A stretch of DNA of 64,000 bases. It comes from an uncultured Gammaproteobacteria bacterium. GTDB lineage: Bacteria > Patescibacteriota > Microgenomatia > UBA10105 > UBA927. The notes under the pieces were generated by a model, which worked only from the letters and a program-made list of their open reading frames with translations, was not told the DNA's origin and did no database searches. Position numbers and translations under genes: made by a program. Of the stretch, positions 16,057 to 55,515 are shown piece by piece (position 1 is the first letter of the stretch; every line of letters begins with the position of its first letter). The stretch spans positions 30,519 to 94,518 of the forward strand of contig CAYUUX010000002.1 of the NCBI GenBank assembly GCA_964448085.1, in the 5' to 3' direction.

Positions 16057-17454
16057 TTATCGGCTTTGGGATCCTAGAGGAAAGGTGTTTGTTTCAATAA
16101 ACAGTGGCCTTCCTTCTGTGTCGTCTACTGCCACTATCATTCCCTGAGATTCTTCTCCCATTATTTTTCTATATTGCAAATTGAAAACAAAGAGAAATTT
16201 TTTGCCGGTGAAATACTCTGCGGCATACCCAAACTGTCTGACTCCAGTGAATATGATCCGTTTTCCTAATTCCCCAAAATTAACATGGAGCCGGATCAAT
16301 TTTTCACTTTTCTCAACGTGTTCTGCTGATTCAACTTGCCCAACCCGCATTTCCACGTTGTACCAATCGTCAATTGTGATGGTTGTTTTTTTACTTGTAG
16401 GAACGGAGTAGGCATTAGTTATACCTGTCAAATTTTTAACCTCTTGTAACGTTGATTCTGCATATCTCATGGCTTGTTCTTTCCCACGAGAAAGAATCTC
16501 CTTTATATATTCGGGATGCTTCTGCATTTCCTTATATTGTTTTCGTGCCGGTGCAAAATGCTGTAGGAGCGATTGATATAAATATTCCTTTACTTCTATA
16601 TCCGCTATTTCTCCCCTCTTATATGCTTGTTTCATTTGCTGTACCTTTTCCTTATCACCAAAAAATTCCAGATATACAAAAACCATGTTTCCATCAATGT
16701 GACCGGGATCCGTTTTATGAATACGGGTTGGATCTGTATATGTTCCCATCACCTGTTTTTTGATGGTTTCTTCTGTTTCAAAAATGCTAATAATATTGCC
16801 TAAAGACTTACTCATTTTTCGTTTTCCATCGGTACCAAGTATTGTTGCAACGTTTTTTGAAATGAGTGGATCGGATAATTTAAAGCATGATGTGTTGTAG
16901 GTTCGGTTAAACAGTTGTGCAATATCTCTGGCAATTTCGACATGTTGTTTTTGATCTTTTCCTACCGGAACGAGGTCGGGTTTATATAAAAGAATGTCAG
17001 CCGCCATGAGAATTGGATAACTAAATAGACCGACGTTAATAGTATCCTCAGCGGTGTCTTTTTGGAGTTTATCCTTATATGCATGCGCCCGTTTTAACAA
17101 CCCAAGTGGAGTAAAATTATTGAGAATTGTTTGTAGTTCTGAATGGAGCCCCCCGATGTCGGATTGTCTAAAAAAGATAAGTCGATCGAATTCTTCTGGT
17201 TCCAAAAAACCTTTCAAGAGAGCGAGTTCGCTAAGTATCAATGTTTCTGTGTTCCTTTGTAATTTATCTTTATTCTGAACAGTTGTCAGTGCGTGATAGT
17301 CAGCCACAAAAAGAAAGCACTCATGTGTGTGTGCCATGTCAATAAATTGTTTGACTGCTCCTAGGTAGTTGCCGATATGGAGAGTGCCATCACCACTTGG
17401 TGTTATACCAGATAAAACTCGTTTCATAGTTATTCCTTTCATATATTGTATCAT
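16057..17454 (-). CDS. trpS: tryptophanyl-tRNA synthetase with C-terminal Trbp111/EMAPII-like tRNA-binding domain
   Basis: Class I core with TPSGDGTLHIGNYLGA (HIGH-type) and KMSKSLGN. About 110 extra C-terminal residues (VGQVESAEHV...LIRLHVNFGE...ESQGMIVAV) match the Myf/Trbp111 OB-fold tRNA-binding domain. Confidence 0.8.
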   Translation of the reverse strand: MIQYMKGITMKRVLSGITPSGDGTLHIGNYLGAVKQFIDMAHTHECFLFVADYHALTTVQNKDKLQRNTETLILSELALLKGFLEPEEFDRLIFFRQSDIGGLHSELQTILNNFTPLGLLKRAHAYKDKLQKDTAEDTINVGLFSYPILMAADILLYKPDLVPVGKDQKQHVEIARDIAQLFNRTYNTSCFKLSDPLISKNVATILGTDGKRKMSKSLGNIISIFETEETIKKQVMGTYTDPTRIHKTDPGHIDGNMVFVYLEFFGDKEKVQQMKQAYKRGEIADIEVKEYLYQSLLQHFAPARKQYKEMQKHPEYIKEILSRGKEQAMRYAESTLQEVKNLTGITNAYSVPTSKKTTITIDDWYNVEMRVGQVESAEHVEKSEKLIRLHVNFGELGKRIIFTGVRQFGYAAEYFTGKKFLFVFNLQYRKIMGEESQGMIVAVDDTEGRPLFIETNTFPLGSQSR

Positions 17455-18892: not shown

Positions 18893-18965
18893 GGCAGGAG
18901 CATCAGGATTTGAACCTGAAATGAGGATTTTGGAGATCCCCGTGATACCGTTTCACTATGCTCCT
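18893..18965 (-). tRNA. tRNA-Trp (anticodon CCA)
   Basis: Hand-folded cloverleaf on the minus strand: 7-bp acceptor AGGAGCA/TGCTCCT, D-loop with GG, anticodon loop CTCCAAA, T-arm TCAGG-TTCAAAT-CCTGA, discriminator G. CC is encoded, the terminal A is not. Confidence 0.8.
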
Positions 18966-27545: not shown

Positions 27546-27563
27546 GCAGTATCGTTGTATATG

Positions 27564-27633
27564 TTGCGGGGCCAGGAATCGCACCTGGTCTAGAAGATTA
27601 TGAGCCTTCTGTGCAACTTTACACTACCCCGCG
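27564..27633 (-). tRNA. tRNA with CAT anticodon (Met/fMet/Ile2), atypical architecture
   Basis: Minus-strand cloverleaf: acceptor CGCGGGG/CCCCGC with a C1-A72 mismatch, anticodon arm GAAGG-CTCATAA-TCTTC (U33, A37), T-arm CCAGG-TGCGATT-CCTGG. Only 70 nt. The D-loop AAAGTT lacks G18G19. CCA is not encoded. Confidence 0.55.
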
Positions 27634-27701
27634 GTTGTTGAAAGAACGTTGTTAGTATACTGTATTTTGACGATTCTGTATACCGTGCGTATACTCAAAG
27701 T

Positions 27702-28208
27702 ATGGGGAAGAACAACAAAGTGCCACACCAATCGAGGGTATTTGTGGTTGTCTGCATTTTTCTGCTTTTGTTGGCAACAGCCATTTTTTTTACAACACGA
27801 TGGAACGTCAATGTTTTAGGCACGACAGACACAGTTTCTGGTGTGGGGAAGGAGTACTATATTCCCTTTGGAACAGGTACGAATACAACAACAGAGTGGA
27901 CTGATGTTAAGGGGGTGGGAGCATATATTGATAGCAGATTATATGGTGCAGTGAAAAAAGTTGTTTTTGAAGCGACTGTTGGAGTCCCATCGGGGAATCA
28001 AATTGCTTTCATACGGTTGTATAACACAACGGACAAGCACCCCGTATGGTATACGGAAATGCAGATGTCTGGAACGGGTCCGGAGCTTCTTATATCATCG
28101 GGAATTACGCTTGATAGCGGGAATAAATTTTATCAGGTTCAAATGAAGTCTCAGATGGGAGCGCCAACCAATCTTCTACAGGCACGCATGCACATTCTGA
28201 CTTACTAA
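27702..28208 (+). CDS. hypothetical membrane-anchored secreted protein
   Basis: 168 aa. N-terminal TM/signal anchor VVVCIFLLLLATAIFF followed by a Thr/Gly-rich, likely beta-rich domain. Confidence 0.4.
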   Translation: MGKNNKVPHQSRVFVVVCIFLLLLATAIFFTTRWNVNVLGTTDTVSGVGKEYYIPFGTGTNTTTEWTDVKGVGAYIDSRLYGAVKKVVFEATVGVPSGNQIAFIRLYNTTDKHPVWYTEMQMSGTGPELLISSGITLDSGNKFYQVQMKSQMGAPTNLLQARMHILTY

Positions 28209-28209
28209 T

Positions 28210-28284
28210 TGGTGCCAGCGGCGGGATTCGGACCTGCGACCCACGCCTTATGAAGACGCTGCTCTACCACTGAGCTACGCTGGC
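28210..28284 (-). tRNA. tRNA-Met (anticodon CAT), canonical elongator-type
   Basis: Acceptor GCCAGCG/CGCTGGC, D-arm GCTC-AGTGGTA-GAGC, anticodon loop TTCATAA, T-arm GCAGG-TTCGAAT-CCTGC, discriminator A, CCA encoded. Confidence 0.85.
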
Positions 28285-28819: not shown

Positions 28820-29680
28820 ATGAGCACAGATCTCAAAGCCACAAATGAGCAGTTTGTTGAATATCTTACATCCAGACGGCGCGCTCGGGCAACTGTTGTT
28901 GCGTACAAAAAAGATATCGACCAACTGCTATCATTTTTTACCACGATGGGTAAAAAAGCAATTGCCGAAGTGACATACGATGAAATAACTGCATTTTTAA
29001 AAAAACTTGCAAACGATAGCTATACTCCCAAGTCAATATCAAGAAAAATTAATTCCATCAAAACCTTTTTCCGATTCCTCAAAGCGTCTGGAGTCATACA
29101 AACAGATCCGGCACTTGAAGTCGCACACCCAAAATACGAGGTAAAACCCCCAAGGATCCTTTCAAAGCTTGAGTACCGAGCGTTGCGGGATACCTGTCGC
29201 AGCGACGTTCGGATGTATGCAATTGTCGAACTATTCTTGCAGACGGGTATCCGCATTGGCGAGCTTGCTGCACTTACCATGGATGACGTGAAACAAAACG
29301 AGCTGCACATAGCTGCGCAGGAGGGTCACGAAGAACGGATGGTTCCTTTAAATAAGGCTGCCCTTGAGGCTCTGGAAAAATATCGCGTGGGGCGAGCTGA
29401 TATGACAAAAAGCACAGCGCTTTTTATCACAAAGACTGGGCGGCCACTGTTGATACGCAATATTAGAACGGCAATTGATCGGTATTTCCGGATTGCGGGT
29501 ATTGAAGGGGCAAAAGTCAATGATCTTCGCCATACATTTATCGCACATCATCTTCTTGCTGGAACGCCAATAACGACCCTTTCCAAGCTGGTAGGTCACA
29601 AACGCCTATCCACAACGGAGAAATATTTAGAGCTTGTGAAGGGAAATCAATCTGAGCGCGTCAAATTGGAAGAATTGTAA
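28820..29680 (+). CDS. tyrosine site-specific recombinase, XerC/XerD family
   Basis: 286 aa. Catalytic R...HxxR...Y pattern (DLRHTFIAHHLL...LVGHKRLSTTEKYL). N-terminal SAM-like domain. Confidence 0.8.
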   Translation: MSTDLKATNEQFVEYLTSRRRARATVVAYKKDIDQLLSFFTTMGKKAIAEVTYDEITAFLKKLANDSYTPKSISRKINSIKTFFRFLKASGVIQTDPALEVAHPKYEVKPPRILSKLEYRALRDTCRSDVRMYAIVELFLQTGIRIGELAALTMDDVKQNELHIAAQEGHEERMVPLNKAALEALEKYRVGRADMTKSTALFITKTGRPLLIRNIRTAIDRYFRIAGIEGAKVNDLRHTFIAHHLLAGTPITTLSKLVGHKRLSTTEKYLELVKGNQSERVKLEEL

Positions 29681-33150: not shown

Positions 33151-33714
33151 TCACGCGCGCTCAACATAACTTCCGGTTTCCGGATCTATTGCAATACGTT
33201 CCCCTTGTTTGATAAACAAAGGGACGGTGACAACGGCACCCGTTTCTACAACAACAGTCTTTGTTGCTCCTGATACGGTATTGCCCCGTGCGCCGTCGGT
33301 TGCCTCAGTAACCAACAGGCGTACTTTTTTGGGAAGCCGGATACCAATAGCTTCTTCTTCATGAATCAGCACCTGGTATGTGTCGTTGGGTTTGAGATAT
33401 TTAACAAAATCCCCCAACAATACTCCTGGTACAGTCACCTGATCGAATGATACATTATCCATGAAAACGAACCCCTCACCTTCCGGATATAAATACTGCA
33501 TTTCGTGCGTTTCAACCGGAAGCTCCTCGACAGATTCCCCGGATTTATAGGTAAATTCCTGAACTTTGCCCGTTTTGAGTGATTTGAGTCTGGTTCGTAC
33601 AAACGCAGAACCCTTTCCCGGATTTACGTGTTGGAACTCCACGATTTGATGGGGTTCATCCTTAAATGTGACAAATAACCCCTTTTTGAATTCTGATGTA
33701 GAGATGATAGACAT
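33151..33714 (-). CDS. efp: elongation factor P
   Basis: MSIISTSEFKKG...NPGKGSAFVRTRLKSLKTGK with the conserved Lys in the PGKG loop. ORF-track start trimmed to the internal Met. Confidence 0.9.
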   Translation of the reverse strand: MSIISTSEFKKGLFVTFKDEPHQIVEFQHVNPGKGSAFVRTRLKSLKTGKVQEFTYKSGESVEELPVETHEMQYLYPEGEGFVFMDNVSFDQVTVPGVLLGDFVKYLKPNDTYQVLIHEEEAIGIRLPKKVRLLVTEATDGARGNTVSGATKTVVVETGAVVTVPLFIKQGERIAIDPETGSYVERA

Positions 33715-33739
33715 GGAAGGTATTATCGCACGAAGCGGA

Positions 33740-34777
33740 TCACTTTTCAAACAGATCTTTTGGTGGAAAAAATGTCGTATCGTTAATATCCCTCGTATTT
33801 GCAAAGAGCATGCACAACCGGTCGATTCCCAATGCAATGCCGCTTGTCTCCGGCATCCCTACTCGAAGCGCTTCAATAAAATCATGATCATATTCATACA
33901 TGGTGTGACCTTTTTTTTGAATTTCTCGCATTTCTTTTTCAAACCGGCTTTTCTGTTCTTGCCAGTCAGTCAATTCTTCGTAGCAATCCGCAAGTTCAAG
34001 ACCCTCAATATAAAGCTCAAAGCGCCTTGCAAAACGTGGATCGTTTACGTCTTTTTTCGCAAGTGCTGCGATAGACGATGGGAATCCATAGAGGATCGTG
34101 GGATGGTTTTTCCCAATGTGTGGTTCAATCTCATTGAGAAAGATCTGATTATACAGTTCTTCCCATGTGGTGTTTGGCATGATTGTATATCCTTTTGCTT
34201 TTGCAAGCTTTTTTGCTTGCCGTATTGAAAAAAACGTATGGAGGTCGATATGTGCATAGCGTTGAAACGCTTCAGCTACAGAAATTCGTTCCCATTTTTT
34301 ATTCAGGTCGCAGACATGGTGTTGGTATTGAAACTTTCCGCTTATCCCCAGGGAGGATGCGATTGACAGAAGGAGGTCTTGGCAATCCTTCATGATACGC
34401 TCGTATGCGTCTCCTACTCTATACCATTCCAGAATCGTAAATTCCGGAAGATGAGATTCGCTTTGATTTTCCGTATTGCGGAAGCTTTTGGTTATCGAAT
34501 AACAATTGCCGATGCCCGCAACAATGAGTTTTTTTAGCGCCAATTCCGGGGATGTTGAAAGGTATGCACGCGTTTTGTTCCTTTGCCTATCCAAAAGATC
34601 CGTTTCAAACACTTCAAGGTATGATTCCGCAGCGGGATAGCGGATAAGCATGGGGGTTTCAACCTCGTGAAATCGTCTGGTTTCAAAAAAAGAACGTATG
34701 GCTGTAATTACTTTTTCGCGAAGAAAATACTTGTCCCAGAGAGCGGGCGTGTTTTTCAGTTTTTGCCAGGTTTTCAT
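33740..34777 (-). CDS. epmA: EF-P lysine-lysyltransferase EpmA (GenX/PoxA; truncated class II LysRS paralog)
   Basis: 345 aa. Class II motifs: motif 1 FFETRRFHEVETPML, motif 2 FRNTENQSESHLPEFTILEWY, motif 3 GIALGIDRL. No anticodon-binding domain. Adjacent to efp. Confidence 0.7.
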   Translation of the reverse strand: MKTWQKLKNTPALWDKYFLREKVITAIRSFFETRRFHEVETPMLIRYPAAESYLEVFETDLLDRQRNKTRAYLSTSPELALKKLIVAGIGNCYSITKSFRNTENQSESHLPEFTILEWYRVGDAYERIMKDCQDLLLSIASSLGISGKFQYQHHVCDLNKKWERISVAEAFQRYAHIDLHTFFSIRQAKKLAKAKGYTIMPNTTWEELYNQIFLNEIEPHIGKNHPTILYGFPSSIAALAKKDVNDPRFARRFELYIEGLELADCYEELTDWQEQKSRFEKEMREIQKKGHTMYEYDHDFIEALRVGMPETSGIALGIDRLCMLFANTRDINDTTFFPPKDLFEK

Positions 34778-40442: not shown

Positions 40443-40862
40443 TTAGCGCATGTATTCGTCGAGGGATTTATTAACAAAGAAATCTGCACGAGCGTTTTGT
40501 TCACGAGGGATATTCTTGTAAAGTATTTTTGCACCGATATTTTGTTCGAGTGTGTGAACTCGAAATGAAAGCTCTCGTAATTTTGCATCCTTAATTTTAA
40601 ACAACCCATTTAACTGATTGACGACCAACAACGAATCAAGAAAACAGGTGACCAATGCATCTTTTTCTATATCCATTTCTCGGAGTGATTCAAATGCGTA
40701 AATGACTGCGGTGTATTCAGCAACATTATTTGTTGTTTCCCCTATATATGCACCAAATTCCTTAATCATCACCCCATTCTTTTTTATTGTTATTCCGACC
40801 GCGGCGGGACCAGGATTTCCTCTGGCTCCCCCATCCGTATTGATTGTGTATTGTGGATTCAT
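40443..40862 (-). CDS. rnhA: ribonuclease HI (type 1 RNase H)
   Basis: 139 aa. TDGGARGNPGPAAVGI...AEYTAVIYA...D...N RNase H1 catalytic pattern. Confidence 0.75.
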   Translation of the reverse strand: MNPQYTINTDGGARGNPGPAAVGITIKKNGVMIKEFGAYIGETTNNVAEYTAVIYAFESLREMDIEKDALVTCFLDSLLVVNQLNGLFKIKDAKLRELSFRVHTLEQNIGAKILYKNIPREQNARADFFVNKSLDEYMR

Positions 40863-48193: not shown

Positions 48194-48478
48194 CTACTTT
48201 TGAAATTTTTTGTCTACCTTCATCAGAAGATAGGTTACAAGTACCGCAAGCACAGTTACGACAATTGCGTAGATCGCAAGGGAGACGATGACACTTCCTT
48301 TTGGGACAAACGGTTTTATATACGTATTTACTATTTCTTCGATGAAGGAATTCCACGCAAGCGCTGCGACCAAACCGAAGGCAGCCGTGGACAGTGCTAT
48401 CATCTGTTTGAGCATCGCTCGAGCCATCCCTTTGGATTGTTTTTTGGCTTCCATACCGCTATTATATACTATAGACAT
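48194..48478 (-). CDS. small two-TM membrane protein
   Basis: 94 aa with two hydrophobic helices. Ends 1 nt before the fic start on the opposite strand. Confidence 0.35.
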   Translation of the reverse strand: MSIVYNSGMEAKKQSKGMARAMLKQMIALSTAAFGLVAALAWNSFIEEIVNTYIKPFVPKGSVIVSLAIYAIVVTVLAVLVTYLLMKVDKKFQK

Positions 48479-49522
48479 ATGTACACTCCAACTTTCTCAA
48501 TCACCAATAAAATCCTGAAATATATTGGTATCATAGAGGCGGCAAAGGAAGTGATTGAGAATGCTCCGTTAGTACCAGCGTGGGAGGCAAAATTTCGTGA
48601 AGAAGCGATCGTTCGAACAGTGCACCATGGTACGCACATTGAAGGAAATGAGCTCAATTTTACGGAAGCGGAAAAAGTATTGGCAGGAGCGAAAATTGTG
48701 GGTCGGGACAGAGATATTCAGGAGGTCTTGAATTATCGGAACGTGTTGAAGTTTATTGAGACTTTTTCAGGAGAAACAATATCGGACGAAACCATCAAAC
48801 ATGTCCATTCACTTGTTGCCGACAGAATTCTTCCCGATGCTGTGGTTGGTGAGTTTCGGAAATCGCAAGTGGTCGTGAAAAACAGTCAAACGGGAGAAAT
48901 TACCTTCCGTCCTCCACCAGCAGTTGAAGTACCATTTTTGATTTCCAATTTCCTGTTGTGGATGAATAACGCCAAGCCGGATGAAGTGCATCCCGCGATA
49001 AAAGCGGGGATAACACATTATGAATTGGTCCGTATCCATCCATTCTTAGATGGGAACGGGAGGGTTGCGCGCGCGATTGCAACGTTAGCGCTTTTCAGAG
49101 ATGGGTACGACATTAAGCGTTTTTTTTCGCTTGAAGAATACTATGACCGTGAACCGGTAAATTACTATGCGGCGTTGCAAAGTGTTGTAAACGAGAATGG
49201 TAACTTGACACACTGGTTGGAATATTTTTCAGAAGGTCTTGCAATAGAACTTACGCGTATTAAAGAAAAGGTGAAATCGCTTTCTACTGATTTAAAAATA
49301 AAAAAGCATTTGGGCGGTCATCAAATGGCCCTTTCCGAAAGGCAAATTAAGATTGTCGAATTTATTCAGGAAAACGGGTTTTTACAAAACAAAGCATTTT
49401 TTGAGTTGTTCCCCATGATTTCCGAAGATACCGTGCTTCGTGAAATAAAGGATTTGATGAAAAAAGGGATTATTCAAAAACAAGGATCGACGAAGGGTGT
49501 GCGATACGTATTGAAAAGTTAA
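48479..49522 (+). CDS. fic: Fic family protein (AMPylase-type, Fido fold) with C-terminal winged-helix domain
   Basis: Canonical Fic motif HPFLDGNGRVARA. Upstream THIEGNELN segment. C-terminal wHTH-like region (RQIKIVEFIQENGFLQNKAFFELF). ORF-track start trimmed to MYTPTF at 48479. Confidence 0.85.
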   Translation: MYTPTFSITNKILKYIGIIEAAKEVIENAPLVPAWEAKFREEAIVRTVHHGTHIEGNELNFTEAEKVLAGAKIVGRDRDIQEVLNYRNVLKFIETFSGETISDETIKHVHSLVADRILPDAVVGEFRKSQVVVKNSQTGEITFRPPPAVEVPFLISNFLLWMNNAKPDEVHPAIKAGITHYELVRIHPFLDGNGRVARAIATLALFRDGYDIKRFFSLEEYYDREPVNYYAALQSVVNENGNLTHWLEYFSEGLAIELTRIKEKVKSLSTDLKIKKHLGGHQMALSERQIKIVEFIQENGFLQNKAFFELFPMISEDTVLREIKDLMKKGIIQKQGSTKGVRYVLKS

Positions 49523-49530
49523 TTGGATCA

Positions 49531-51258
49531 ATGGTATTTTCCACGCTTGCTACCTATTTTCAAAAACTCGAGAACACGCCGTCACGCATCACGATGACGG
49601 AGATACTTGCTGATCTTTTTTCATCCGCTTCCACAACGGAAATCGGTGAAATTTGTTTTCTTCTTCAAGGGCGGGTTGCGCCGCTTTTCGAACCCGTGGA
49701 GTTTGGTGTCGCTGACAAGCTTATGATTCGTGCCATTACCAGTGCATATTCTTTAAAAGAGGCGCAGGTTATTGCTCTTTTTAAAAAATATGGCGATCTC
49801 GGCATTACTGCGGAAACAATTGCTAAAGAGAAACACCCTTCCGACAAACATACGAGCACAAGCGTACATTCGGTGTTTATAAAACTCCAACAATTGGCCG
49901 GTGAAAAAGGAGCAGGATCTCAAGAACGAAAGAATGCCATTCTTTCCGAACTTTTGTCCGCTTGCGACCCATTATCCGCACGATATCTGGTTCGAATTCC
50001 TTTGGATAAATTACGGCTCGGATTTTCAGACATGACGATGCTTGACGCGTTGTCATGGATGATCACGAAAGACAAATCCAACCGCAGTGCTTTTGAAGCA
50101 GCATATAACGTACGGCCGGATTTGTCCTTTATTGCTACGCTCATCAAAACGCGTGGGCTAGCAGGGGTTTCAGGTATATCGACAAAGGTCGGAGCGCCGA
50201 TTCTTGCAGCATTGTGTCAACGACTGCCCAATGCAAAGGAAATGATTGAAAAGATGGGAGAAGTAGACGTGGAGCCGAAATACGACGGTGTTCGGACACA
50301 GATTCATTTTATAAAACACCCCTCATGGGTGCAAAGCTACTCCCGAAACCTTGAAAACACAACTGCTATGTATCCCGAATTAACCCACATTGCATCCCAA
50401 ATTGATGCCGACGAAGTGATTTTGGATAGCGAAGCGGTGGGGTACGATGAAATCCATAAGAGAGTTATTCCCTTCCAAGAAACCGTTACGAGAAAACGCA
50501 AATACGGTATCCGCGAAGCAAGTGCTACGGTACCGCTTCGCTTTTTTGTCTTTGATATTCTTTCAAAAAACGGGAAAGATCTCATGGGCACGCCGTTGTC
50601 CAAACGAAGAGTAATTTTGGAAAAAACGATACGAACGGGTCGCATTCTTTCTCTTTCACCACACATCGTAACTTCGGATATCGCGACGCTTCGGGAATAT
50701 CAAAAAGAACAAATAGCATTAGGGCTTGAGGGTGTCGTTGTAAAAAAATGGGACAGTCATTATGAGCCTGGTCGTAGAGGCTATACGTGGGTGAAGTTTA
50801 AAGAGGAGGGGAAGGTTGGGAAGCTTGCCGATACCATTGACTGCGTGGTGATGGGGTATTACAAAGGAGAGGGGAAACGGGCAGACTTTGGCATCGGAGC
50901 GTTTCTTGTTGGGGTTTTGGATAAGGAAAATTTTGTGACGGTAACAAAAATCGGAACAGGTGTTTCGGACGAATTATGGAAAATGCTTGCTAAACGGTTT
51001 GCCAAGGAACGTATGGCGCAAAAACCATCCATGTATGGCGATGTTGAAAAGAGTTTGACCCCTGACGTTTGGGTTCAGCCAACCACCGTTGTTGAAATAG
51101 CGGCAGATGACATCACGAAGTCGCCGATTCATAAGGCTGGATACGCGTTGCGATTTCCTAGGTTGGTGCGTATTCGAGAAGATAAATCCATACACGCCAT
51201 TACGTCGACCAAAGAACTACAAACAATGTATAGTAATCAACAGTCCATACGATTATGA
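49531..51258 (+). CDS. lig: ATP-dependent DNA ligase (archaeal/eukaryotic type, N-terminal DNA-binding domain + adenylation + OB)
   Basis: 575 aa. Motif I EPKYDGVR (KxDG), motif III/IV (EGVVVKK) and motif V regions. Begins 8 nt after fic. Confidence 0.85.
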   Translation: MVFSTLATYFQKLENTPSRITMTEILADLFSSASTTEIGEICFLLQGRVAPLFEPVEFGVADKLMIRAITSAYSLKEAQVIALFKKYGDLGITAETIAKEKHPSDKHTSTSVHSVFIKLQQLAGEKGAGSQERKNAILSELLSACDPLSARYLVRIPLDKLRLGFSDMTMLDALSWMITKDKSNRSAFEAAYNVRPDLSFIATLIKTRGLAGVSGISTKVGAPILAALCQRLPNAKEMIEKMGEVDVEPKYDGVRTQIHFIKHPSWVQSYSRNLENTTAMYPELTHIASQIDADEVILDSEAVGYDEIHKRVIPFQETVTRKRKYGIREASATVPLRFFVFDILSKNGKDLMGTPLSKRRVILEKTIRTGRILSLSPHIVTSDIATLREYQKEQIALGLEGVVVKKWDSHYEPGRRGYTWVKFKEEGKVGKLADTIDCVVMGYYKGEGKRADFGIGAFLVGVLDKENFVTVTKIGTGVSDELWKMLAKRFAKERMAQKPSMYGDVEKSLTPDVWVQPTTVVEIAADDITKSPIHKAGYALRFPRLVRIREDKSIHAITSTKELQTMYSNQQSIRL

Positions 51259-54888: not shown

Positions 54889-55515
54889 ATGAAACTCATC
54901 GTTGGACTTGGAAATCCGGGAGCTGAATATCAGGATACCCGACACAACCTCGGTTTTATGGTTATTGAGAAGCTTGCAAAAGAACTTGCATCGGAGGAAA
55001 TTTCATGGAAGGAAGAAGACAAATTTAAAGCGTTGGTTGCAAAAATTGGCGATGTGGTTTTAGTTAAGCCCATCACGTTCATGAACAGCTCTGGCGTAGC
55101 TGTGGCTTCTATAATGCGGTATTTTAAGCTGGATCCGTCCGACGTTTGGGTGATACATGACGACATTGACTTGCCGCTTGGAAAAATACGAATACGCGAA
55201 AAGGGAAGCAGCGCAGGTCACCGGGGTATTGAATCCATCATTGCAGAATTGAAGACTGACGTATTTGTTCGGTTTCGCCTTGGTATAGGGCGCGGAAAGC
55301 TGTTTTCTAAAGGAGACAGCGATACGACAACGATAGAAAAAGGCATTGCGGGGCGATCACATCATGGGCGACACCATTGGGATATTTCCTTCGTGCTTTC
55401 CCGATTTACCCAAAGTGAAGCAGGTGCATTAAAGCACCTGATAAAAAACGGAACCGAGGCAGTGCGAATAGCTATCACTGCAGGTACGGATAAGGCGATG
55501 GCGAGATTTAATTGA
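54889..55515 (+). CDS. pth: peptidyl-tRNA hydrolase
   Basis: MKLIVGLGNPGAEYQDTRHNLGF is the canonical Pth N-terminus, with catalytic His in HNLGF. 208 aa, C-terminal extension. Confidence 0.9.
   Translation: MKLIVGLGNPGAEYQDTRHNLGFMVIEKLAKELASEEISWKEEDKFKALVAKIGDVVLVKPITFMNSSGVAVASIMRYFKLDPSDVWVIHDDIDLPLGKIRIREKGSSAGHRGIESIIAELKTDVFVRFRLGIGRGKLFSKGDSDTTTIEKGIAGRSHHGRHHWDISFVLSRFTQSEAGALKHLIKNGTEAVRIAITAGTDKAMARFN

Follow-up and report, generated by a model that had tools for sequence, protein, structure and literature searches.

The 64-kb window studied here (the whole stretch of DNA that was analyzed, 64,000 nucleotides (nt) of contig CAYUUX010000002.1) is cellular DNA of ~42% G+C from a Microgenomates/Gottesmanbacteria-like bacterium of the Candidate Phyla Radiation. 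ARAGORN finds three transfer RNA (tRNA) genes in it, all on the minus strand: a tRNA-Trp at 18893..18965, a tRNA-CAU at 27563..27633 and a further tRNA-CAU at 28210..28284. Against the Rfam model RF00005 (gathering score 29) they score 60.1, 48.5 and 62.5 bits, respectively, the second of them over 27564..27633. We concentrated on this second gene, which comparison with its relatives indicates, at a probability of roughly 0.85, to encode a functional initiator tRNA with a compensated elbow. The gene and its parts are as follows.

27564..27633, minus strand: initiator tRNA(fMet)-type gene of 70 nt, anticodon CAU (ARAGORN, RF00005, minimum-free-energy cloverleaf, 70/70 match to the related locus L028); no CCA is encoded and the trailer is CAU
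27627..27633, minus strand: acceptor 5' strand CGCGGGG, from the sequence; C1 (27633) is unpaired versus A72 (27565), and the discriminator is A73
27615..27620, minus strand: D-loop AAAGUU, 6 nt without GG, from the sequence; A18 is 27618 and G19 is 27617
27593..27609, minus strand: anticodon arm GAAGG CUCAUAA UCUUC, from the sequence; CAU is 27602..27600, and the stem includes A29-U41, G30-C40 and G31.U39
27577..27583, minus strand: T-loop UGCGAUU, from the Rfam alignment; U54 is 27583, G55 is 27582, C56 is 27581 and A58 is 27579, and the loop fits the UGNRA consensus
27654..27682, minus strand: promoter-like TATACA-17-TATACT, from a consensus scan only, with its 3' end 20 nt upstream of the tRNA 5' end
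27667..27695, plus strand: divergent promoter-like TTGACG-17-TATACT on the side of a 168-amino-acid open reading frame (ORF), from a consensus scan only, overlapping the minus-strand site

Read 5' to 3' on the minus strand, the sequence is CGCGGGG UA GUGU AAAGUU GCAC A GAAGG CUCAUAA UCUUC UAGA CCAGG UGCGAUU CCUGG CCCCGCA A, and the cloverleaf is its minimum-free-energy fold (-27.7 kcal/mol, z = -3.1). RF00005 matches it with E = 2.6e-07 over the whole window and is covered at model positions 1-71 of 71, which places the molecule among the tRNAs. The original prediction, made from the letters alone and without naming a strand, had described a tRNA-CAU here with C1 opposite A72, a 6-nt D-loop lacking GG and a T-loop with G at position 55. 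Both programs call the tRNA and set it on the minus strand, the C1xA72 apposition is present in the sequence next to A73, and the Rfam alignment confirms G55. The covariance-model fold gave no normal G18G19 D-loop, and the hand alignment behind that description was correct. One G does remain in the D-loop, able to serve as G19. Compared with the canonical elbow, in which G18 contacts U or pseudouridine at position 55, the window tRNA has A18 and G55. Finders and filters that penalize a missing GG or T-Psi-C score such initiators lower, here 48.5 bits versus 60-62 for the neighboring tRNAs, of which the tRNA-Trp is fully canonical.

The features of a bacterial initiator are all present in the window tRNA: CAU, C1xA72, G2:C71, C3:G70, A73 and the CUCAUAA loop. 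It shares these, and G30:C40, with Escherichia coli tRNAfMet (metZWV/metY type), whose acceptor-stem sequence we take to be the same. The window tRNA departs from that molecule in its 6-nt D-loop lacking GG, in G55, in a variable region of 4 nt (effectively 3), in U11:A24, in the single G-C pair of its 29-31 segment and in not encoding CCA. C1xA72 with 2:71 and 3:70 are the formylase determinants of bacterial initiators, and natural initiators with an au/GC/gu anticodon stem exist in mycoplasmas and alpha-proteobacteria, G30 being the crucial residue (PMC5389676). The window tRNA has this very stem (A29-U41, G30-C40, G31.U39, with G30 kept) and conforms to the degenerate rule of G30:C40 within three consecutive purine:pyrimidine pairs (PMC5389676). 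It differs from the au/GC/gu initiators in its Microgenomates lineage and in its elbow, no change of which is mentioned in PMC5389676 as read here. The original prediction had left the identity between an unusual initiator, a tRNA-Ile2 and a tRNA-like element. The initiator features, the au/GC/gu stem and the compensatory stem changes described below uphold the first of these and lend no support to the other two.

Relatives were gathered in two ways. A G55-selected scan, in which each of 185,579 species was represented by one genome, looked for CTCATAA, then TGCGA after 14-15 nt and CCCCGCAA after a further 7 nt; it gave 115 loci, in which ARAGORN recognizes 108 initiator-type tRNAs. Among the listed records that name a lineage, most are labeled Patescibacteria (Gottesman-, Levyi-, Woese-, Ames-, Taylor-, Uhr- and Saccharibacteria, and Paceibacterota). 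The placeholder label 'Gammaproteobacteria' is attached to about two dozen, and most of these share with Microgenomates tRNAs the GUGU-type sequence, named after the D stem GUGU/GCAC. Because selection on either loop was to be avoided, a neutral sample was drawn from metagenome contigs with GCGGGGT, a 17-23 nt gap and AGGCTCATAATCT, a pattern that constrains the acceptor 5' strand and the anticodon arm and nothing else. It yielded at least 120 loci; 102 initiators could be parsed among the matches listed, and all counts from the neutral sample below refer to the matches listed. Covariation was read from a gapless alignment of 81 distinct 70-nt sequences, with the window sequence first. Position 18 was assigned by GG versus AG content and manual reading, since a 'last G in loop' rule misassigns some loops (e.g. 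CAUCAGGAG).

The closest public relatives are metagenome-assembled genomes (MAGs) of Gottesmanbacteria (Microgenomates group, Patescibacteria). One such MAG (L028, JAZDOQ010000034) has a tRNA identical at 70/70 nt, whereas the flanking DNA is ~70% identical and the adjacent ORF 71.5% identical in amino acids, and the tRNA is therefore under strong purifying selection. More than 100 related genomes have kept the initiator, with compensatory changes in its stems. In the alignment, paired cells make up 95.4% of the cloverleaf overall, 99.5% of the T stem and 99.8% of the anticodon stem, and nine stem pairs change on both sides; none of 500 shuffles reaches the observed pairing, and slid controls are 31-54% paired. 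The acceptor pairs 2:71 to 5:68 and 7:66 are invariant in the 81 sequences, while 6:67 is G-C in 76 and G.U in 5. Position 1 is C in 39, U in 40 and A in 2; position 72 across from it is A, except for one sequence with G72. In about half of the relatives a Watson-Crick U1-A72 hence takes the place of the window tRNA's mismatch. The three pairs A29-U41, G30-C40 and G31.U39 recur in all GUGU-type initiators of the genome scan, which left the stem free. All 137 GUGU-type initiators (L001-L235) have C directly behind the discriminator; their trailer is most often CA plus A, C or T, and CCA is encoded in only 18.

In the canonical elbow, G18 intercalates between 57 and 58 and contacts pseudouridine 55; reviews call this contact universal and pseudouridine 55 universally conserved (PMC4810234, PMC7912444). 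The original prediction held that the usual elbow contacts would be removed from the window tRNA, and this part of it is not supported. The single D-loop G (G19) and C56 are invariant in 81/81 relatives, from which we infer a G19:C56 pairing, and position 18 co-varies with position 55, which implies that the 18:55 contact has been exchanged and not lost. The combinations found at 18:55 in the alignment are A.G (43), G.U (34), G.C (2) and C.G (2), so that 43 of the 45 sequences with G55 have A18 and the other two C18; G.G and A.U are absent there and in the 102 neutral initiators. In the neutral sample, a D-loop with GG accompanies U55 in 69/102 initiators and C55 in 2/102, and a D-loop with AG accompanies G55 in 31/102 (31%), with no discordant case (GG with G55 or AG with U55) in 102. 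The mutual information between columns 18 and 55 of the alignment is 0.99 bit, as compared to 1.06-1.22 for the stem pairs and at most 0.61 for other unpaired columns except 26:44 (0.82). By-catch tRNAs, which were unselected on the T-loop, obey the same rule, and in the G55-selected genome scan the D-loop has AG without GG in 105 of 108 initiators, CG in 2 and GG in 1. We saw no covariation of the Levitt pair (15:48) in the alignment.

Within one clade, that with the D stem GUGU/GCAC, the D-loop ACGGCU goes with the T-loop UUCAACU, AAAGUU with UGCGAUU and AGAGUU with CGCGACU. Parsimony counts ~15-17 joint switches at 18/55 on a poorly resolved tree built from the other 58 columns, and sequences that are 0-1 nt apart elsewhere carry opposite states. 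Repeated switches, together with opposite states in near-identical sequences, make a single inherited event insufficient as an explanation.

A counterpart for the exchanged contact is known from riboswitches. The T-loops of flavin mononucleotide (FMN) and cobalamin riboswitches have the consensus YGNRA (UGNRA 88.7%, CGNRA 10.9%); intercalation into them is nearly always by an A, which contacts the sugar edge of the loop-position-2 G through two hydrogen bonds; and a C-A closing pair performs nearly like U-A (10.1101/2022.12.26.521914). The window loop UGCGA and the loops of its relatives (UGCGA, UGCAA, CGCGA and CGCAA) conform to this consensus, their partner is likewise A, and C at loop position 1 appears only with G at position 2, C54 being found only together with G55 (13/45 versus 0/36 in the alignment). 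The YGNRA loops, the A partner and the restriction of C54 to the G55 class together suggest an elbow rebuilt as a riboswitch-type T-loop/receptor, with G19:C56 retained. The tRNA case differs from that of the riboswitches (10.1101/2022.12.26.521914) in its elbow context, in which C56 (loop position 3) also pairs with G19, and in being known from sequence alone. By analogy, an A18 that intercalates against G55 in this specific geometry is the arrangement towards which we lean. Eukaryotic initiator tRNA, with A54 and A60 (cited in PMC7912444), offers another initiator-specific departure from the universal T-loop; it belongs to a different domain of life, concerns positions 54/60 and not 55/18, and retains both G18 and pseudouridine 55.

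A co-varying A18.G55, often with C54, thus replaces a contact that reviews call universal (PMC4810234, PMC7912444). It provides a natural experiment on the purpose of the 18:55 contact, TruB and pseudouridine 55, and connects the elbow of tRNA with the YGNRA T-loop/receptor class of riboswitches; a swapped 18/55 pair may also help in the design of orthogonal tRNAs. In the literature searched, which omits most subscription journals, we found no description of an A18/G55 elbow covariation or of unusual initiators of the Candidate Phyla Radiation. Natural initiators with the anticodon-stem variant were known before, and the parts not found described are the compensated elbow, the YGNRA link and the bias toward initiators set out below.

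The core of this family is compact. The D-loop is 5-6 nt long (6 in the window tRNA, 5 in some relatives), the variable region is effectively 3 nt, and positions 26 and 44 (alignment columns 24:42) form a Watson-Crick pair that switches between A-U (25 sequences) and G-C (55 sequences), bringing the anticodon stem to 6 base pairs (bp); position 25 also co-varies with 45 (columns 23:43). A 6-bp anticodon stem, a 3-nt variable loop and a 5-nt D-loop belong to the compact core described in PMC1851642, of which the single nucleotide between the acceptor and D stems is missing here, since U8 and A9 are both present and invariant in the relatives. Comparison with the two tRNAs of that type, tRNAPyl and bovine mitochondrial tRNASer(UGA), shows a shared short D-loop, 6-bp anticodon stem and 3-nt variable region and the shared absence of G18G19 and T-Psi-C, and the tRNAPyl of D. 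hafniense even has G55 (PMC1851642). The window tRNA is unlike them in having both U8 and A9 and in its role, which would be initiation and not suppression.

We propose that the window tRNA would work as follows. A transcript made from its own promoter-like site would be trimmed, and CCA would be added enzymatically because it is not encoded. MetRS would charge the tRNA via CAU and A73, Fmt would formylate it via C1xA72, G2:C71 and C3:G70, and G30:C40 within the three purine:pyrimidine pairs would provide for entry to the P site. The elbow would fold as a YGNRA-type T-loop closed by U54.A58, with A18 intercalated between 57 and 58 and hydrogen-bonded to the sugar edge of G55, and G19:C56 would still present the flat outer face. 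With such an elbow the L-shape would be kept, and RNase P, the CCA enzyme and the ribosome would still recognize the tRNA. Position 55 could not be pseudouridine in this tRNA.

G55 is biased toward initiator tRNAs. In the neutral metagenome loci it occurs in 31/102 initiators versus 0/181 other tRNAs (Fisher p = 6e-16). In the genome loci it occurs in 0/82 by-catch tRNAs other than CAU and in 7/78 elongator-type CAU tRNAs, all seven of which have A18 (e.g. AGGUAGUUA with UGCAAGU). A scan of IMG/VR with the G55 pattern found 86 viral contigs (L236-L321) with initiator-like tRNAs, and AG replaces GG in the D-loops of all the viral sequences listed (AGUAGUA, AGUCUAGUCG and others). G55 among the by-catch of the viral loci comes down to a single tRNA-Pro call, itself dubious, and to four copies of the selected initiator-like tRNA that had slipped past the filter. 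The cultured Brevundimonas phage vB_BpoS-Kikimora (L322, ON529857 154048..154124, KIKIMORA_03010) has a tRNA-Met whose D-loop is AGUCCAGUA and whose T-loop is UGCGAAU. Canonical tRNA-Met genes are found in Rhizobium phage Y65, Stenotrophomonas phage Philippe and Ruegeria phage V12, and a BLAST search of cultured phage records with the window tRNA gave no match. The A18.G55 set now spans ~110 species of the genome scan, 31% of the neutral sample, 86 viral contigs and one cultured phage.

Two loci of the genome scan are dense in tRNA genes, with 28 in 8 kb in L035 (JAEYYY010000345, 1..8000; labeled Proteobacteria) and 17 in 8 kb in L076 (JANNBP010000171, 1..8000; labeled Deltaproteobacteria). 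About a third of their tRNAs (Pro, Val, Ile, Tyr, Leu, Cys, His) have A18/G55, and many start with C1. These may be phage or island tRNA arrays.

The same molecule could have come about by another cause, namely selection of A18/G55 as an initiator-specific mark, for instance for escape from U55-dependent enzymes or tRNA-targeting nucleases or for distinction from elongators, and not by a neutral compensated swap. The near confinement of G55 to CAU tRNAs, mostly initiators, fits such a mark, as does its presence in the 86 viral contigs and the cultured phage. However, the frequent flips of state between near-identical sequences fit a near-neutral exchange, A18/G55 is also carried by some elongator Met tRNAs and in the L035/L076 arrays, and no partner protein or nuclease has been identified. 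We therefore treat selection for a mark as a possible but doubtful cause. Equally tentative is a broader proposal, that A18.G55, with C54 optional, might be a second, riboswitch-type elbow design preferred for initiators in Candidate Phyla Radiation bacteria and phages. If so, such initiators would be blind to U55-dependent enzymes such as TruB, and the design could mark initiators off from elongators or shield phage and host initiators from tRNA-directed attack. It would then be a bacterial counterpart of the eukaryotic initiator A54/A60 signature.

A relaxed, elbow-less tRNA, in which, as in many mitochondrial tRNAs of metazoans, the D-loop/T-loop contacts are gone and the elbow is floppy, would account for a short D-loop and for the absence of both G18 and U55, and reduced genomes are characteristic of Candidate Phyla Radiation lineages. 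We consider it improbable, as G19 and C56 are invariant in 81/81 relatives, U54 or C54 and A58 are kept, and the 18:55 covariation is as tight as that of a stem pair. Random loss would not yield only A.G, G.U, G.C and C.G, with no discordant pair among the 102 neutral initiators.

It is very unlikely that the gene is a pseudogene, a tRNA-like remnant or the attachment site of a mobile element. Such an origin would agree with the lowest Rfam score of the three window tRNAs (48.5 bits), with the unencoded CCA and with a Phage_integrase-family ORF at 28820..29680, a tyrosine recombinase gene 1.2 kb away. Yet between this locus and L028 identity is 100% in the tRNA against ~70% in the flanks, the stems of its relatives change in a compensatory manner, and the absence of CCA is the norm in the family. 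The recombinase is Xer-like (best matches XerC, XerD and XerA) and syntenic in many related loci. No att-like duplicate of the 3' half of either CAU tRNA occurs anywhere in the 64-kb window, and hence there is no sign of an integrated element.

Least probable of all is a tRNA-Ile2, whose C34 TilS would convert to lysidine for the reading of AUA: the CAU anticodon and an anticodon stem not of the three-G-C type would suit it, but C1xA72 in a CGCGGGG/CCCCGCAA acceptor is an initiator signature (PMC5389676) in place of the paired 1:72 of elongators, related loci carry a tRNA-Ile(UAU) for AUA, and the window has no TilS gene (nor fmt or TruB), which is weak evidence for a piece of such size.

Several observations weigh against a functional initiator with a compensated elbow. 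As the original prediction noted, the anticodon stem lacks the strict set of three G-C pairs (29:41, 30:40, 31:39), a form that we do not regard as defining because natural au/GC/gu initiators are documented (PMC5389676). The pair at 11:24 is U11:A24, of elongator type, in the window tRNA and in 81/81 relatives. E. coli tRNAfMet has A11:U24 at this place, a minor determinant. The 18/55 rule is not absolute, since one of the 108 G55 initiators (L105) keeps G18G19 (D-loop AGCCUGGUA) with the T-loop UGCGAAU. The sequences are related, so that counts do not equal independent events, and resolution of the 58-column tree is poor. Finally, a second, canonical initiator may exist elsewhere in the genome, beyond the 64-kb window; ARAGORN finds no second initiator-like tRNA within the window, and none lies beside any of 300 related initiators. 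As to the locus of L105, an elongator Met tRNA there has A18/G55, and the L105 initiator could represent an intermediate in evolution or an error of assembly.

The remaining features of the window that bear on translation or lie near the initiator gene are listed here.

28210..28284, minus strand: elongator-type tRNA-CAU, probably Met (ARAGORN, RF00005 62.5 bits); body 28284..28213, with CCA encoded to 28210
27702..28208, plus strand: 168-amino-acid ORF between the CAU tRNAs, with an N-terminal hydrophobic segment; no Pfam or NCBIfam match, not part of the tRNA
28820..29680: tyrosine recombinase of the Phage_integrase family, Xer-like, 1.2 kb from the initiator tRNA gene at 27564..27633 (minus strand)
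33151..34777, minus strand: EF-P adjoining EpmA (EF-P lysine aminoacylase; TIGR00462, 341 bits versus a cut-off of 286.9)
54889..55515: peptidyl-tRNA hydrolase gene
16057..17454, minus strand: TrpRS with a C-terminal tRNA_bind OB domain (Trbp111/MetRS C-terminal type), ~1.4 kb from the tRNA-Trp

The tRNA at 28210..28284 had been described in the original prediction as a canonical tRNA-Met 570 bp from the initiator. It is a tRNA-CAU with G18G19 kept (D-loop AGUGGUA) and with G1:C72, lying across a gap of ~580 nt, but fully canonical it is not: its T-loop is UCCGAAU (C55), and its T stem has the mismatch A51xC63. A GCCAGCG-type tRNA is found near the initiator in 15 related loci and the tRNA at 28210..28284 is of the same type, so that it is probably the elongator tRNA-Met. 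An initiator and an elongator-type CAU tRNA within 0.1-5.6 kb, often with a small ORF too, recur in related loci in varying orientation. BLAST of the 28210..28284 tRNA against E. coli genomes matches a tRNA-Arg, by generic tRNA similarity. C55 with GG is common in the elongator Met, Thr and Ile(UAU) tRNAs of related loci, with 28/162 by-catch tRNAs in the genome loci and 21/181 in the metagenome loci (among the matches listed); U55 is therefore not fixed in these lineages.

A tRNA-Ile(UAU) lies near the initiator in 13 loci (L029, L040, L044, L048, L052, L054, L057, L078, L080, L085, L091, L094 and L112). On this comparative evidence a third, lysidine-bearing CAU tRNA may not be needed, as AUA may be read without tRNA-Ile2 in these lineages, and the expectation of three CAU tRNAs that came with the original prediction may not apply.

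The single ORF between the two CAU tRNAs is as originally described, and homologues of it accompany the initiator tRNA at nine related loci, one of them L028. Genes elsewhere in the window include those for FtsH, a DivIC-like protein, the Xer-like recombinase, ValRS, YidC, ribosomal protein L25, a DUF4012 protein and many glycosyltransferases. The tRNA_bind OB domain of TrpRS belongs to a family reported to bind the tRNA elbow. A Fic-domain protein, a 575-amino-acid ATP-dependent DNA ligase and a small RNase H / RVT_3 protein, encoded at 48200..51258 (plus strand) and 40443..40862 (minus strand), are unrelated to the tRNA finding.

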